32,000 nucleotides of DNA from an uncultured Rivularia sp. (GCA_963665115.1 OY762007.1:4132341-4164340); one strand, 5' to 3'. Counted from the stretch's first letter, positions 4,458 to 30,801 are shown. The notes: generated from the sequence alone by a model not told the origin. Numbers and translations are program-made.

Positions 4458-4825
4458 ATGACTGACGAAAACATCAGACAGATAGCATTTTACGGAAAAG
4501 GTGGTATTGGTAAGTCCACTACATCTCAGAATACTCTTGCAGCAATGGCTGAGATGGGTAAAAGAATTATGATCGTAGGTTGCGATCCAAAGGCAGATTC
4601 CACTCGTTTGATGCTCCACTCCAAAGCACAAACAACCGTACTTTCATTGGCTGCTGAGCGCGGTGCAGTAGAAGATTTAGAACTTGAAGAAGTAATGCTC
4701 GAAGGTTTCCGTGGCGTTCGCTGCGTAGAATCCGGTGGTCCTGAGCCTGGTGTAGGTTGTGCAGGTCGTGGTATTATCACCTCCATTAACTTCTTGGAAG
4801 AAAATGGTGCTTACCAAGACTTAGA
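4458..4825 (+). CDS. nifH: nifH segment 1 of 4 (codons 1 to 122 plus 2 nt of codon 123)
   Basis: Encodes [34 protein letters not shown]...[22 protein letters not shown]. The NifH match ends at 4825. The tail of the track ORF (ELIIETVLF*) is read-through into the element. Confidence 0.95.
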
Positions 4826-4929
4826 ATTGATAATAGAAACAGTGCTTTTCTGAAATAGCAATCATTAGAACGATTAACCTGGACTCTACATTATTTTTAA
4901 ATTAAATAACTGCTATTATTCTATTAAAA

Positions 4930-4979
4930 AAGTGGTTTAGTAAAGCATTTTAACAAAATAACTTAAATAAACCACACTT
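4930..4979 (-). terminator. Possible terminator of the element-1 recombinase gene
   Basis: AAGTGGTTTA (4930..4939) pairs with TAAACCACACTT (4968..4979) with a 2-nt bulge. On the minus strand the stem is followed by TTTTTAATAG. It lies about 150 bp downstream of the stop at 5132. Confidence 0.35.
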
Positions 4980-5131
4980 ATTTTTATCTTATTTTTATTG
5001 CTTTTACTTTAATCTATTTCCCAATCATATTTTTTGGTAAAGTTGATTGTACTTAATTCAATTACAATCCTTTTAAGCGAAAATACATAATTGCAAACAA
5101 AGAAATTGTATCGTTATATATCTTTTATAAA

Positions 5132-6540
5132 TCACGTTTTTACTTGTTTTTCTATCTCCAAGCGTTTAATCGTTATCCTTAATGTTTCATTCTCTAACTC
5201 TAATTCCTTGACTCTACTTTCAAGTACTTTCATCATGCCTTGTTTAGCAGTTGCTGTATCAATGGCACTTTTACGATTGTCTAGTGAGAACCATTTTTGA
5301 TAAGTATTGGTATGCATCTGCACGCTATGACCTAAATTATCTGATGCAGCTTTGATTGGTATACCCATTAAGTGCGCTCTAATTGCCCAAGCATGACGCA
5401 AATCGTAGGGAGTAAAACCACATTTTGCTTTTTTAAACCAGTTGCAATTAGCTAATTTGTTAGAATTAAGCCTTTTGTAGGAGATTGAATCTGTAAAATA
5501 TTCTGCAACTGATGAAGATACTTCTTGATTCTTTAAATCAAATAGTTCAATCCATCTTTCGTGTAGTGGTAAAACTTCTCTTTCTCCAGTTTTAGCTAAT
5601 TCATCTACTTTCCAGGTACTGTTAATATTCTCTTTACTTAACCACCATTCGATATTAGGACGTAAAAATAACTCACGCGGGCCCTCAACCCGTATGTTGC
5701 TAACATCCCATATATCCACCGATATATTTTCCAATTATCTTCAAATTTTCTATTCTTAATTCCTCGCTGCTGCCTACCGTTTGCATATTGTTCGTATCCC
5801 AAATATGCTGCTTCTATTTGGCTGTCACTAGGAATATTCCTTTTTTGTGCCTTTGGTCGTTTCAGATATTCGGCTACGTTTATATCTATATCAAAATACT
5901 TTGCGAATATTGATATAGAAATAGCCAAATTTCGTCTAGGGTAGCTTTCTGGTTCGGTAGTATCGAGTATTTGTAAAAGATTATCTGATGTTGCTAGTTG
6001 TTCTAAAGGTATGCGTCTTGTTAACTCTCTAAAGTAGTTATTAAAACTGTGTTCGCTTTTGATTGTGCGCTTGTGGTTTTTGAAGTACTCATTCTCAAAT
6101 CTTTCTAATAAATCACCAAACGTTTTGACTTCTAGTTTTTGCTTGCTCTTAACTCCCAAGTATTTATCATTCCATACAAAACTTTTTCTGGCTATTAACT
6201 TACCTAATTCGTAAGCTTCTTCCTCAGCGGTTTTTAACCCATCTAAATTTGCTGGTATTCCCAATGAAATCAAATACTGTTTAGTACCAGTACCTTTTTT
6301 ATCTTTATCGCCTGGTTTTAGGGGAAGTGTTGCCTGTAAAGCCAAACTATTGTTGTTCTTCGTCACCTTAGCTTTACACCTAGCTGCTTTTAATCGTTCT
6401 TTTAACTGAGCAAACTGCTTTTCAAATTCTTCTTGCATATATTTTTCTCTATGCGCGTCATGGTGTTTGATGCCGAAGTATGACCCATCTGTGCTTGGTA
6501 GTGGCTGATAGTCAGCAAACCCTGTATCTCTATCAATCAT
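5132..6540 (-). pseudogene. XisA/XisC-family tyrosine recombinase, frameshifted at GGGCCC (5679..5684)
   Basis: ORF 5638..6540 contains ...LQATLPLKPGDKDKKGTGTKQYLISLGIPANLDGLKTAEEEAYELGKLIARKSFVWNDKYLG...IYRWIYGMLATYGLR. ORF 5132..5734 continues with PRELFLRPNIEWWLSKENINSTWKV...YDLRHAWAIRAHLMGIPIKAASDNLGHSVQMHTNTYQKW, which holds the catalytic R-H-R-Y region. The total of 1409 nt is not a multiple of 3. Confidence 0.8.
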
Positions 6541-6661
6541 ATTTACCTTACTTTTACATTACTTTTTTGGCTGTTTAGCACAAGCTTTTACATAGCTGTA
6601 ATTAGTTCAGGCTAAACAAAAGTATTGTATAACGTTTCTGGGTAAGTAATGAAAACTTAGA

Positions 6662-6731
6662 TTTCGTATCTTACGACGTACTTGGTGACGTTGTATGTGG
6701 TGGATTTGCTATGCCTATCCGCGAAGGAAAA
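6662..6731 (+). CDS. nifH: nifH segment 2 of 4 (completes codon 123, through codon 146)
   Basis: Encodes (D)[23 protein letters not shown], the exact continuation of NifH after ...AYQDL. It is only 70 bp long and lies between two elements. Confidence 0.92.
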
Positions 6732-6822
6732 TTAGAATTATAAATCTACTTTTTATAATTTAAAACTTTCAAAAAAAAATATCTAATTTTAACTATAGGA
6801 TTAATATTTAGGTATTAAAAGA

Positions 6823-6852
6823 CCTGCTTTTATTCACAAAAGCGGGTTTTTT
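6823..6852. terminator. Hairpin plus T-run in the left arm of element 2
   Basis: CCTGCTTTT (6823..6831) pairs with AAAAGCGGG (6838..6846) with one G-U pair. It is followed by T6 (6847..6852) on the plus strand and by TCTTTTAAT on the minus strand. It sits downstream of the integrase stop and in the path of nifH read-through. Confidence 0.5.
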
Positions 6853-6925
6853 AGTTATTGTTAATCAATCAAAAATATTTATTTATGATTATTCCGAATT
6901 TACAATGTCCAATTCCCAAATTCCT

Positions 6926-28853: not shown

Positions 28854-28975
28854 TATTTTAAATCCAAGTTTTTACCAAAGATTTGAGTTAGTTGTACCTT
28901 GAGTGAAGTTGAATTATTTCGTAAATTGGGTACTACTCTACTTTAATTTCATAAAAATAGAGTTTTTTTAGATTT

Positions 28976-29005
28976 GTTAGAGATATTATAAATAACATCT
29001 CCAAC
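28976..29005 (-). terminator. Hairpin after peptide gene 1, related in sequence to the one at 28224..28253
   Basis: GTTAGAGAT (28976..28984) pairs with ATCTCCAAC (28997..29005) with one wobble. It has the same AGAGAT..ATCTC core and a 12-nt loop. Confidence 0.4.
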
Positions 29006-29048
29006 AAGATTGCACCTCAATCACTCAAAGTATTTAACGGCTTTATAA

Positions 29049-29288
29049 TTAACCAAACATTGAGTTATATTGCGCGAGCAACATTGGTTTTACAATATTT
29101 CTCAAAAATTTTGGAAAAGACTTTAATGTATTGCCAAACATTTCATTAAATGATGGGGGTTCGTCTGTAATATATGTTGGTTGAATATCTTTGGATTCTG
29201 CATACAGTTGTTCTCCACCAGTCAAATTTTCAGAAGCTTCATCTGACAATACTTCAAATAATTGCTCTTGATTTTTGTTAATAGACAT
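29049..29288 (-). CDS. Double-glycine-leader peptide precursor 1 (79 aa)
   Basis: The leader is MSINKNQEQLFEVLSDEASENLTGG. The 54-aa Cys-free core is EQLYAESKDIQPTYITDEPPSFNEMFGNTLKSFPKFLRNIVKPMLLAQYNSMFG. Confidence 0.75.
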   Translation of the reverse strand: MSINKNQEQLFEVLSDEASENLTGGEQLYAESKDIQPTYITDEPPSFNEMFGNTLKSFPKFLRNIVKPMLLAQYNSMFG

Positions 29289-29410
29289 TGTTTGAACTCC
29301 AAGTTTTAAAAAAGGTTTTAAGTTGTTTTAAGCCTTGATTGAGGTTTTGCTTTGCTGTTCCTCCATCTGTAAACAATACTAAACGTTTTTTCTCTCAGTG
29401 TAAATAAACA

Positions 29411-29472
29411 AAAGTTGATATCTTTTTTGAAGAATAAACCAACATTTTCATCAAAGTTGACAAAAGTTGATA
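29411..29472. promoter_or_regulatory. Array C: AAAGTTGATA at 29411..29420 plus the tandem pair AAAGTTGACA AAAGTTGATA at 29453..29472, upstream of the peptide operon
   Basis: The array lies 123..184 bp upstream of the ATG at 29288 on the minus strand. It has the same orientation relative to its gene as arrays A and B. Confidence 0.55.
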
Positions 29473-29915
29473 TATCCGTTTTTTGCCCTTGCAAAAAACT
29501 TGATTGTTGGTGTAATAGTTATTCTTTGCTTTTAATTTTTTTTGATTAAATATGATTGCTTAGCTTAAGATATTTAATATATGTAATTATTCCCACATTC
29601 TTGATAAGAAAGAAGTAAATTAATTAGTGATTATTTTAAATAAAATATGAAGCTGTTGATTTTTTTCTAGTAATTTTCACTAACATTTGTTTCTATATCC
29701 GCAAATACCACGACTCGAAGAGAAATAATGCAACTACAACTGTCACAGCATTCGCAGCGGAATTTTACGAAATTATATGATTGCGAGCGGTAGCCTTAAC
29801 GGCAGCTTTGCGGAACGAAAGTGTAGCGTGTCCCGTATGGACTCAGCAATTTACCCTTATACTGGGAATGTTTACTGTTACGCTACTTCCAGCTTAATAT
29901 TGCTCCGATAAATGA

Positions 29916-30690
29916 CTACGCAACAATCCATAGATGTTCGTGGGTATCCGGCCATATTTGAATTTGCGGACGAGCTTCTAGCGCCGTACTAATTAATTGA
30001 CTGGCAATATCGGCGTGAATAGAAACTCCACTGACTCTATCGCGATAATGAGTATAAAAATAGTCATCTAAACTTGCCGCTGTAGGGTCCAATTAAAACA
30101 ATGCGATCGCGAATAAATTCAGGTGACATTTTCCCTGTTAATACCTGATTCATTGAGATTGTAGGGAAACCAGAGCGGAGGTTGCGAAAGTTAGCTAATA
30201 CTTGATAACCACCTATATCATTTCGCAGATAGCCGCCATCCGAAGCATCTAATTCAATTAGAAAACCTTTACCGAGTTTGAGCGATAAAACTTCTTCTCC
30301 AACAAATTCTGGATAAATGCCTTTGCTTTCAAGATAGTTTAAAGCTAACTGCGTTCCCAAACCCAAGATAATGTCGCCGTTTTTATCTTCAATAGATAAT
30401 AGATTACGTCTGACTCTACCATCTTGGTCTACAACTATATCAGAAGCACTTACCTGTCCTAATTCTTTTAATTTTAGTGGTGGATTAACGAAATTAGAAG
30501 CACTACCCGTCATCTTCTAAATTCCGAATAAACTTAGTGTGGATGCAAAAACCTGTACTAGCTGCTTAAATGCTGGCTCTACAGGTAAATCGCGATAAAT
30601 ATCAAGTCCAATAACTGATGGTTGGTGTTGTTTTACGATTGATAATAATCTCATCTTCCCAAAAAATATATCCTTGTATGGTCTACACCT
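29916..30690 (-). pseudogene. CHASE2 sensor-domain gene remnant (in-frame stop, frameshift, both ends truncated)
   Basis: The minus strand encodes ..SVIGLDIYRDLPVEPAFKQLVQVFASTLSLFGI*KMTGSASNFVNPPLKLKELGQVSASDIVVDQDGRVRRNLLS...IRDRIVLIGP. After a frame change near 30070 it continues TAASLDDYFYTHYRDRVSGVSIHADIASQLISTALEARPQIQIW...*. There is no TM region or output domain, and it abuts the right junction. Confidence 0.6.
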
Positions 30691-30695
30691 CTAGA

Positions 30696-30801
30696 AATGG
30701 ATGAGTTAGAAGCACTTCTCGTTGAGTTCGGTATCTTGGATGATGATACCAAGAACGCAGACGTAATTGGTAAAAAAGCTGAAGAAGTTCCTGCTACCTA
30801 G
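30696..30801 (+). CDS. nifH: nifH segment 4 of 4 (completes codon 263, through the stop)
   Basis: Encodes (E)[34 protein letters not shown], the canonical NifH C-terminus. Confidence 0.92.

Follow-up and report, generated by a model that had tools for sequence, protein, structure and literature searches.

How can nifH, the gene of the nitrogenase Fe protein (nitrogenase reductase), serve a cell whose chromosome carries it cut into four pieces? The question is raised by a stretch of 32,000 nucleotides (nt) from an uncultured Rivularia sp. (GCA_963665115.1 OY762007.1:4132341-4164340), which we call the window and whose positions are counted from its first letter. A first-pass annotation of the window had proposed that nifH is interrupted there by three unrelated excision elements. 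We compared the locus with its relatives (loci are cited below by L numbers, related proteins by P numbers) and with published systems, to see what becomes of this proposal.

A gene in four pieces

The pieces lie on the same strand, in the order in which the protein needs them; nifH numbering refers to the rejoined gene.

nifH piece 1: 4458..4825, + strand; nt 1-368, residues 1-122; its 3' end is the left ACTTAGA copy (4819-4825)
nifH piece 2: 6662..6731, + strand; nt 369-438, residues 123-146; its 3' end is the left CCGCGAAGGAAAA copy (6719-6731)
nifH piece 3: 8461..8804, + strand; nt 439-782, beginning with AQEIY...; its 3' end is the left CTACACC copy (8798-8804)
nifH piece 4: 30690..30801, + strand; nt 783-894 including the stop codon; encodes ...MDELEALL...PAT-stop

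When each junction repeat is counted once, the pieces make exactly 894 nt, that is 297 codons and a stop, as the first-pass annotation had counted: the span from 4458 to 30801 covers 26,344 nt, from which insertions of 1,836, 1,729 and 21,885 nt are to be subtracted. The rejoined protein scores 469 bits on the TIGR01287 nifH equivalog model (cutoff 394). Aligned with solved nitrogenase Fe-protein chains, a comparison with NifH references that had been proposed as a check, it matches over residues 5-293, and none of the three joins falls on a gap. The pieces occupy the canonical place of the gene, between nifU and nifD. The division of nifH into four pieces that rejoin exactly in frame is real, and far beyond what chance would produce.

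The second piece is the most striking in its brevity. Together with 2 nt of the preceding repeat copy it encodes DFVSY...PIREGK (6660-6731), and the part of nifH found there and nowhere else, between the ACTTAGA and CCGCGAAGGAAAA repeats, is 57 base pairs (bp) long; we take this short stretch to cover switch II as well as Cys135, which is here the second cysteine ligand of the [4Fe-4S] cluster.

Three insertions with exact boundaries

What separates the pieces can be delimited to the nucleotide.

Element 1: 4826..6661; 1,836 bp; right ACTTAGA copy at 6655-6661; contains a recombinase gene only
Element 2: 6732..8460; 1,729 bp; right CCGCGAAGGAAAA copy at 8448-8460; contains a recombinase gene only
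Element 3: 8805..30689; 21,885 bp; right CTACACC copy at 30683-30689; carries cargo

Each is bounded by a direct repeat, one copy of which belongs to nifH: ACTTAGA, 7 bp (4819-4825 / 6655-6661), corresponds to nifH nt 362-368; CCGCGAAGGAAAA, 13 bp (6719-6731 / 8448-8460), to nt 426-438; and CTACACC, 7 bp (8798-8804 / 30683-30689), to nt 776-782, in codons 259-261. The last of these boundaries differs from the one first proposed, which placed the third break in codon 263, at 8810/30697. In a sibling Rivularia chromosome (L019, OZ245371.1) element 3 is absent and window position 8804 meets 30683 through the 7-bp overlap, leaving the empty site ...ATTCCTACACC|TCTAGAAATGGATGAG, and an uninterrupted nifH from Brasilonema encodes PTPLEMDE at this position. 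The last nucleotide of piece 3 is therefore 8804, and the first of piece 4 is 30690. A join of 8810 to 30696/97, which would yield PTPMEMDE, is ruled out by the same two observations: the 'ME' encoded at 8805-8810 belongs to element 3 and not to nifH, residue 262 is leucine and not methionine, and the gene is broken in codon 261, the total remaining 894 nt.

Empty sites of this kind exist in nature for the two other insertions as well. L095/L096, where nifH nt 142-438 are contiguous at 96% identity, and the Brasilonema locus L020 lack element 1, whose junction sequences are kept in eight distinct related loci (an isolate draft, metagenome-assembled genomes and metagenome contigs). Element 2 is carried by L019 and is precisely missing from L018. 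Because each insertion has its natural empty-site allele in related Rivularia, we can understand the three as discrete units with exact boundaries, and the proposal that they are separate insertions stands: for each, some relative has a precise empty site instead (L095/L096, L018 and L019, respectively). The recombination sites are thereby defined precisely enough for the design of excision assays.

The two small elements also differ in composition from their surroundings, with a guanine plus cytosine (GC) content of 0.30-0.34 (about 0.33 for element 1, about 0.30 for element 2) against 0.39-0.43 in the nif genes; a lower GC content of small elements was also reported by Hilton et al. (2016, PMC4874684).

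The recombinase genes

Every insertion has a recombinase gene near one of its edges.

rec1: 5132..6540, - strand; tyrosine recombinase of the XisA/XisC family; 469 amino acids after removal of a +2 frameshift
rec2: 6926..8356, - strand; tyrosine recombinase of 476 amino acids from the ATG at 8356; Phage_integrase domain
rec3: 8873..10255, + strand; large serine recombinase of the XisF family; Resolvase, Recombinase and Zn_ribbon_recom domains

The start of rec1 is 114 nt from the right edge of element 1, and the gene points away from nifH piece 2. Its closest homologues are the intact 469-residue proteins P0001-P0003 (88-91% identity; domains XisAC_N, PF27551, and XisAC_2nd, PF27132), and it is about 50% identical to Anabaena/Nostoc proteins named XisA or Excisase A, so that both its domains and its similarity to XisA place it in the XisA/XisC family. 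As sequenced, its frame is split into two overlapping open reading frames (ORFs), 5638-6540 and 5132-5734, a point to which we return below.

The ORF of rec2 reaches upstream to a TTG at 8371; about 91 nt separate the ATG from the right edge of element 2. BLASTP finds no similarity between rec2 and rec1, and rec2 is not a member of the XisA/XisC family. It is 100% identical to P0301, and relatives that are 82-93% identical adjoin nifH fragments in Rivularia-type contigs. More distant ones (P0163, P0129 and P0168, 38-46% identity) are integrases in non-nif contexts; being ordinary integrases away from nif genes, these three were dropped as a guide to nifH targeting.

As for rec3, it begins 68 nt inside the left edge of element 3, in the direction of nifH, and scores 492.6 bits on the NF041201 recomb_XisF model (cutoff 375); with its resolvase, recombinase and zinc-ribbon domains it belongs to the XisF family, and it is 100% identical to a recorded protein.

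The idea that each element has its own recombinase, of a different kind, is thus upheld as regards the three lineages, which BLASTP and the XisF model tell apart, and has to be qualified as regards rec1, which is frameshifted as sequenced. The place and strand of the three genes follow the rule drawn by Hilton et al. (2016, PMC4874684) from 100 interruption elements: opposite strand where the element ends, or same strand where it begins.

A probable route from a broken to a continuous gene

All three insertions display the features of interruption elements: the ORF is restored when they are removed, direct repeats stand at their ends, and a recombinase gene lies near an edge. We consider it likely, with a good measure of confidence, that they are developmentally excised elements, removed as circles to rebuild nifH. 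By analogy with known systems we infer that excision would take place during heterocyst differentiation of this organism, and that each recombinase would act on its own element. The host can be placed among the heterocyst-forming cyanobacteria through its nearest loci, which are titled Rivularia sp. (genomes and metagenome-assembled genomes), at 97-98% nucleotide identity, none being identical to the window. Rivularia is a heterocyst-forming genus.

The process might be pictured as follows. In the vegetative (germ-line) chromosome nifH would be broken by three independent interruption elements, as nifD, fdxN and hupL are in Anabaena, each bounded by a short direct repeat lodged in conserved nifH sequence and carrying a recombinase gene some 70-115 nt from one edge. 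Site-specific recombination between the repeat copies would release the element as a circle while one copy is kept in nifH, and the three reactions would be independent of each other. At ACTTAGA (nt 362-368), rec1, the XisA-family tyrosine recombinase, would free a circle of 1.84 kilobases (kb); at CCGCGAAGGAAAA (nt 426-438), rec2, a tyrosine integrase foreign to that family, would free one of 1.73 kb; and within CTACACC (nt 776-782), rec3, the XisF-family large serine recombinase, would free one of 21.9 kb. The joins predicted in the restored gene are ...CAAGACTTAGATTTCG..., ...CCGCGAAGGAAAAGCACAAG... and ...CCTACACCTCTAGAAATG..., and those predicted in the circles ...GAAAACTTAGAATTGAT..., ...CCCGTTCCGCGAAGGAAAATTAGAA... 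and ...GGTCTACACCGATGGAGCG.... Together the three excisions would yield the 894-bp nifH, and at least one more would be needed for nifD, downstream. If so, we are dealing with a compact and fully collinear case of multi-step developmental gene assembly, with four pieces held within 26 kb.

Excision at two of the three sites has been demonstrated in other genera: in Anabaena cylindrica for the 429 site (bioRxiv 10.1101/629832), and, for the ACACC site around residues 263-264, as restoration of the gene in Calothrix NIES-4101 (PMC11249958).

Can the gene still be restored?

Several observations weigh against this picture of developmental excision. As sequenced, rec1 holds two extra bases at about 5681-5682 (GGGCCC for GGCC), an insertion shared by none of the related loci that align there. 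It puts the catalytic C-terminal third of the protein (LRHAW..., ...NTYQKW) out of frame, so that no intact frame runs through this domain in the assembled sequence, possibly as the result of an assembly error. Two extra bases also break the neighbouring nifS at about 2407-2408 (GGGGG for GGG); L013, L015 and L018 lack them. No strict NtcA box (GTA-N8-TAC) stands upstream of the rec1, rec2 or rec3 genes; in the window as a whole there are 10 matches, where 6.7 are expected by chance. Five small ORFs of element 3 were scanned for accessory genes resembling xisH or xisI, and none of them matched a Pfam family. In Anabaena PCC 7120, XisF requires XisH and XisI. In Calothrix NIES-4101 the xisH/xisI genes are located elsewhere in the genome (PMC11249958). 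Finally, in two relatives the codon differences from the window in nifH are not mainly synonymous (synonymous to nonsynonymous, 24:16 in L094 and 16:16 in L097).

The two frameshifts invite a reading of their own, in which the nif locus is decaying: the insertions in rec1 and nifS would be real, element 1 could no longer be excised and this copy of nifH would never be restored, so that the strain would use another nifH or would have ceased to fix nitrogen. Both frameshifts are indeed specific to the window, found in none of the relatives aligning there, and the long ORFs of the cargo, up to 5.8 kb, are intact, so that the assembly is not riddled with insertions and deletions. Both insertions, however, lengthen runs of G or C, as errors of base-calling or consensus typically do. 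In the sibling locus L013, nifS shows a +1 indel of its own (CC to CCC, at window position 2566), which can be read in two ways: it could mean that selection on nifS is relaxed, and it is an indel of the same G/C-run type. If the extra 2 nt are set aside, the rec1 protein is 99% identical to the intact copies of L013 and L019. The nifH pieces themselves are undamaged, and their differences from most relatives are mostly synonymous, at 20:1 for L015, 30:1 for L095, 30:3 for L016 and 39:9 for L018. In most of the relatives compared, L094 and L097 excepted, the pattern of these codon counts is that of purifying selection, not of a dead gene. Because of the extended G/C runs, the CC-to-CCC indel of L013 and the near identity of rec1 to intact copies, we moderately favour assembly or base-calling error as the origin of both frameshifts. 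Should they be real after all, element 1 would probably be locked and this nifH copy beyond restoration in this strain. A locus in decay seems to us unlikely, while still deserving serious attention.

Another possibility is that ordinary mobile elements or prophage remnants have become integrated in nifH, to be left there by a cell that relies on a second, intact copy. The integrases distantly related to rec2 and found away from nif genes would fit this explanation, as would the additional intact nifH2 of Calothrix NIES-4101 (PMC11249958). It accounts poorly for the rest: the pieces sit where nifH belongs, between nifU and nifD; the reading frame is perfect and, across many genomes, the differences from most relatives are mostly synonymous; the recombinase gene is the sole content of two of the elements; and experiments in other genera have shown excision at two of the three sites. 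We regard this explanation as quite improbable. That unrelated contigs were joined chimerically through the short repeats, as might be feared of what appears to be a metagenome-assembled chromosome, is barely credible: all or some of the six junction sequences are found again in independently made assemblies (96.7-97.9% identical in the nearest chromosome-level matches, 85-93% in more distant relatives), and the pieces keep their order, share one strand and join exactly in frame.

Probable gain and loss among close relatives

Developmental excision being retained as the likely reading, it is worth considering how the elements are distributed among nearly identical chromosomes. Identity to the window is 97.9% for L013 (positions 1-6700) and 96.7% for L019 (positions 4600-8804 plus 30683-32000). 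The sites occupied in nifH are 362, 426 and 781 in the window, 143, 362 and 426 in L019, and 362 and 407 in L013. Judged from these sequences, such differing occupancy among nearly identical Rivularia chromosomes implies that elements were gained or lost recently in the germ line.

Further breaks in nifH are found in relatives at nt 143 (serine recombinase), about 198 (XisAC tyrosine recombinase), about 407 (serine) and about 490 (XisAC tyrosine), in contigs L001/L002/L017, L007-L012, L013-L016 and L095-L098, some genomes having the gene in five pieces or more. The piece that lies between the 362 and 407 elements of L013 is about 45 bp long, and pieces of about 45-55 bp occur among the relatives. 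Since relatives cut the gene more finely, the three elements of the window and its 70-bp piece are not extreme.

Comparison with known systems

Nor is the triple arrangement, of which the first-pass annotation could not tell whether it had been described, without precedent. The catalogue of Hilton et al. (2016, PMC4874684) contains 19 nifH elements, distributed over six sites (nt 92, about 143-150, 257, about 405-409, about 429, and 781). Three of these elements, inserted at nt 92, 409 and 781, belong to Calothrix (Dulcicalothrix) desertica PCC 7102 (PMC4874684, S1 File Table B), so that there, as in the window, three collinear elements share one nifH and tyrosine and serine recombinases are mixed; the two other sites differ, being 92 and 409 there and 362 and 426 here. 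The nt-781 element of PCC 7102 resembles element 3 closely: its serine recombinase gene lies on the same strand at the start of the element, some 70 nt from the edge and directly after a nifH fragment ending ...CCTACTCC, and its product is 53% identical to rec3. With its AC(A/T)CC site and its same-strand serine recombinase at the beginning, element 3 is a 'nifH 781' variant.

In Calothrix sp. NIES-4101, nifH1 comprises four parts and is accompanied by three recombinases; resequencing and polymerase chain reaction established that it is restored, and the same work mentions four nifH fragments in a GTDB-Rivularia strain (PMC11249958). The likeness to the window extends to the location in the nif cluster, the three recombinase genes beside the fragments, and a break at the same ACACC site, around residues 263-264, with an XisF-like serine recombinase. 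In NIES-4101, however, all three recombinases are of the serine type and the breaks fall at about amino acids 48, 135-139 and 263, whereas two of the three are tyrosine recombinases here; its fragments are spread over 115 kb, some of them inverted, so that inversions are needed, whereas simple excisions suffice for pieces collinear within 26 kb. A nifH in four pieces and its restoration are therefore already known, and no new category is opened here; a further search of the accessible literature brought up no other relevant paper.

Element 2 calls for another comparison, with the 'nifH 429' elements of the Anabaena/Nodularia type, which have CCGTGAAG as their repeat (nt 428-429). The position in nifH is the same: CCGCGAAGGAAAA, spanning nt 426-438, covers the same CCGYGAAG, and in both cases the recombinase gene occupies the opposite strand, with about 90-110 nt between it and the right edge. 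The recombinases are nevertheless different, because the 429-site elements of metagenome loci (L029, L081, L067 and others) carry an XisA-like enzyme, 46-47% identical to rec1, and tblastn found no match to rec2 in interrupted metagenome loci with CCGTGAAG junctions, so that rec2 falls outside the 429 recombinase cluster. That rec2 is XisA-like, or an orthologue of the Anabaena-type 429 recombinase, is excluded by BLASTP (against rec1) and by tblastn (against the metagenome loci). Element 2 is also smaller, 1.7 kb as against 5-9 kb for Anabaena-type 429 elements. In L049 (4249-5740) a CCGTGAAG-type nifH junction adjoins a glycosyltransferase gene, with an XisA-like gene about 3 kb away; the element end there, ATATCACTGCTCCTTG, resembles the right end of element 2, ATATCACTCTCCCGTT.

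The site at nt 426-438 is thus associated with an XisA-like recombinase in elements of the Anabaena/Nodularia type and with a lineage of generic integrases (rec2) in the Rivularia clade. The site of element 1, nt 362-368, is absent from the six nifH sites listed in 2016, a comparison to which the supplementary tables of PMC11249958, with their Rivularia fragment positions, are external. We lean slightly towards the view that use of nt 426-438 by two unrelated lineages of tyrosine recombinases, together with a seventh nifH site at nt 362-368, is perhaps unpublished. If true, the shared site would mean that the same 'safe' place was captured twice, independently; it would inform us about the way elements pick target sites that stay conserved, and could yield small, orthogonal pairs of recombinase and site.

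The classical elements of Anabaena PCC 7120 provide the general frame. Short direct repeats, a recombinase of their own and an excision that restores a heterocyst-specific gene are common to both cases; XisA, of the nifD element, shares about 50% identity with rec1, and rec3 fits the equivalog model of XisF, of the fdxN element, while the target gene and the core sequences differ. Farther away, the skin element in sigK of Bacillus subtilis (with SpoIVCA) also bears its recombinase and is cut out of a gene that only a terminally differentiated cell requires, though in a different phylum and with a single element per gene.

Cargo of element 3

Element 3 alone contains more than its recombinase gene.

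Element 3 cargo: 10256-30689; secretion-related genes, namely those of a 1,922-amino-acid RTX/DUF4114 protein, a 913-amino-acid TPS-domain protein, a C39-peptidase ABC exporter, an S8 protease with RTX repeats and an HlyD-like protein, and a truncated CHASE2 ORF (30064-30513)

In L099 and L001, too, nifH fragments have genes with TPS and DUF4114 domains close by. The TPS gene has upstream of it a 10-bp tandem repeat, TCAACTTTTA, in about 3.8 copies (17972-18009); a related unit, roughly its reverse complement, AAAGTTGATA, occurs in 2.5 copies (26228-26252) upstream of the S8-RTX gene, which is on the other strand. The two repeats may represent a shared regulatory motif within the cargo.

The neighbouring nif genes

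The surroundings of nifH are those of a nif cluster, itself interrupted once more.

nifB: 1..1417, + strand; 5' end outside the window, frame open from base 2; Radical_SAM and Nitro_FeMo-Co domains
fdxN-like ferredoxin gene: 1552..1887, + strand; Fer4 domains; uninterrupted
nifS: 2024..3237, + strand; two overlapping ORFs, 2024-2416 and 2347-3237, owing to the +2 insertion
nifU: 3356..4255, + strand; NifU_N, Fer2_BFD and NifU domains
nifD 5' piece: 30953..31186, + strand; 78 codons, cut after GPIK at CGATTA (31179-31184, nifD nt 227-232)
XisA-like recombinase gene of a fourth element, in nifD: 31293..32000, + strand; start only, running off the window

The two ORFs of nifS match positions 1-125 and 123-371 of the Aminotran_5 profile, respectively. 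The nifD piece covers positions 1-67 only of the TIGR01282 nifD profile, and its break coincides with the nifD-227 variant site that Hilton et al. (2016, PMC4874684) list for Rivularia sp. PCC 7116. The translation of the recombinase gene that follows resembles rec1 (STDGSY..., LPLKPGD..., WNDKYLG), and the same interruption of nifD is present in L019 and L094. Tandem repeats built on heptamers (AATCCAA; CAACTAG/CAACTAT) occupy the intergenic regions nifB-fdxN (1451-1496), nifS-nifU (3239-3277) and nifU-nifH (4277-4321), and these regions are where the indels that set the window apart from L013, L015 and L018 cluster.

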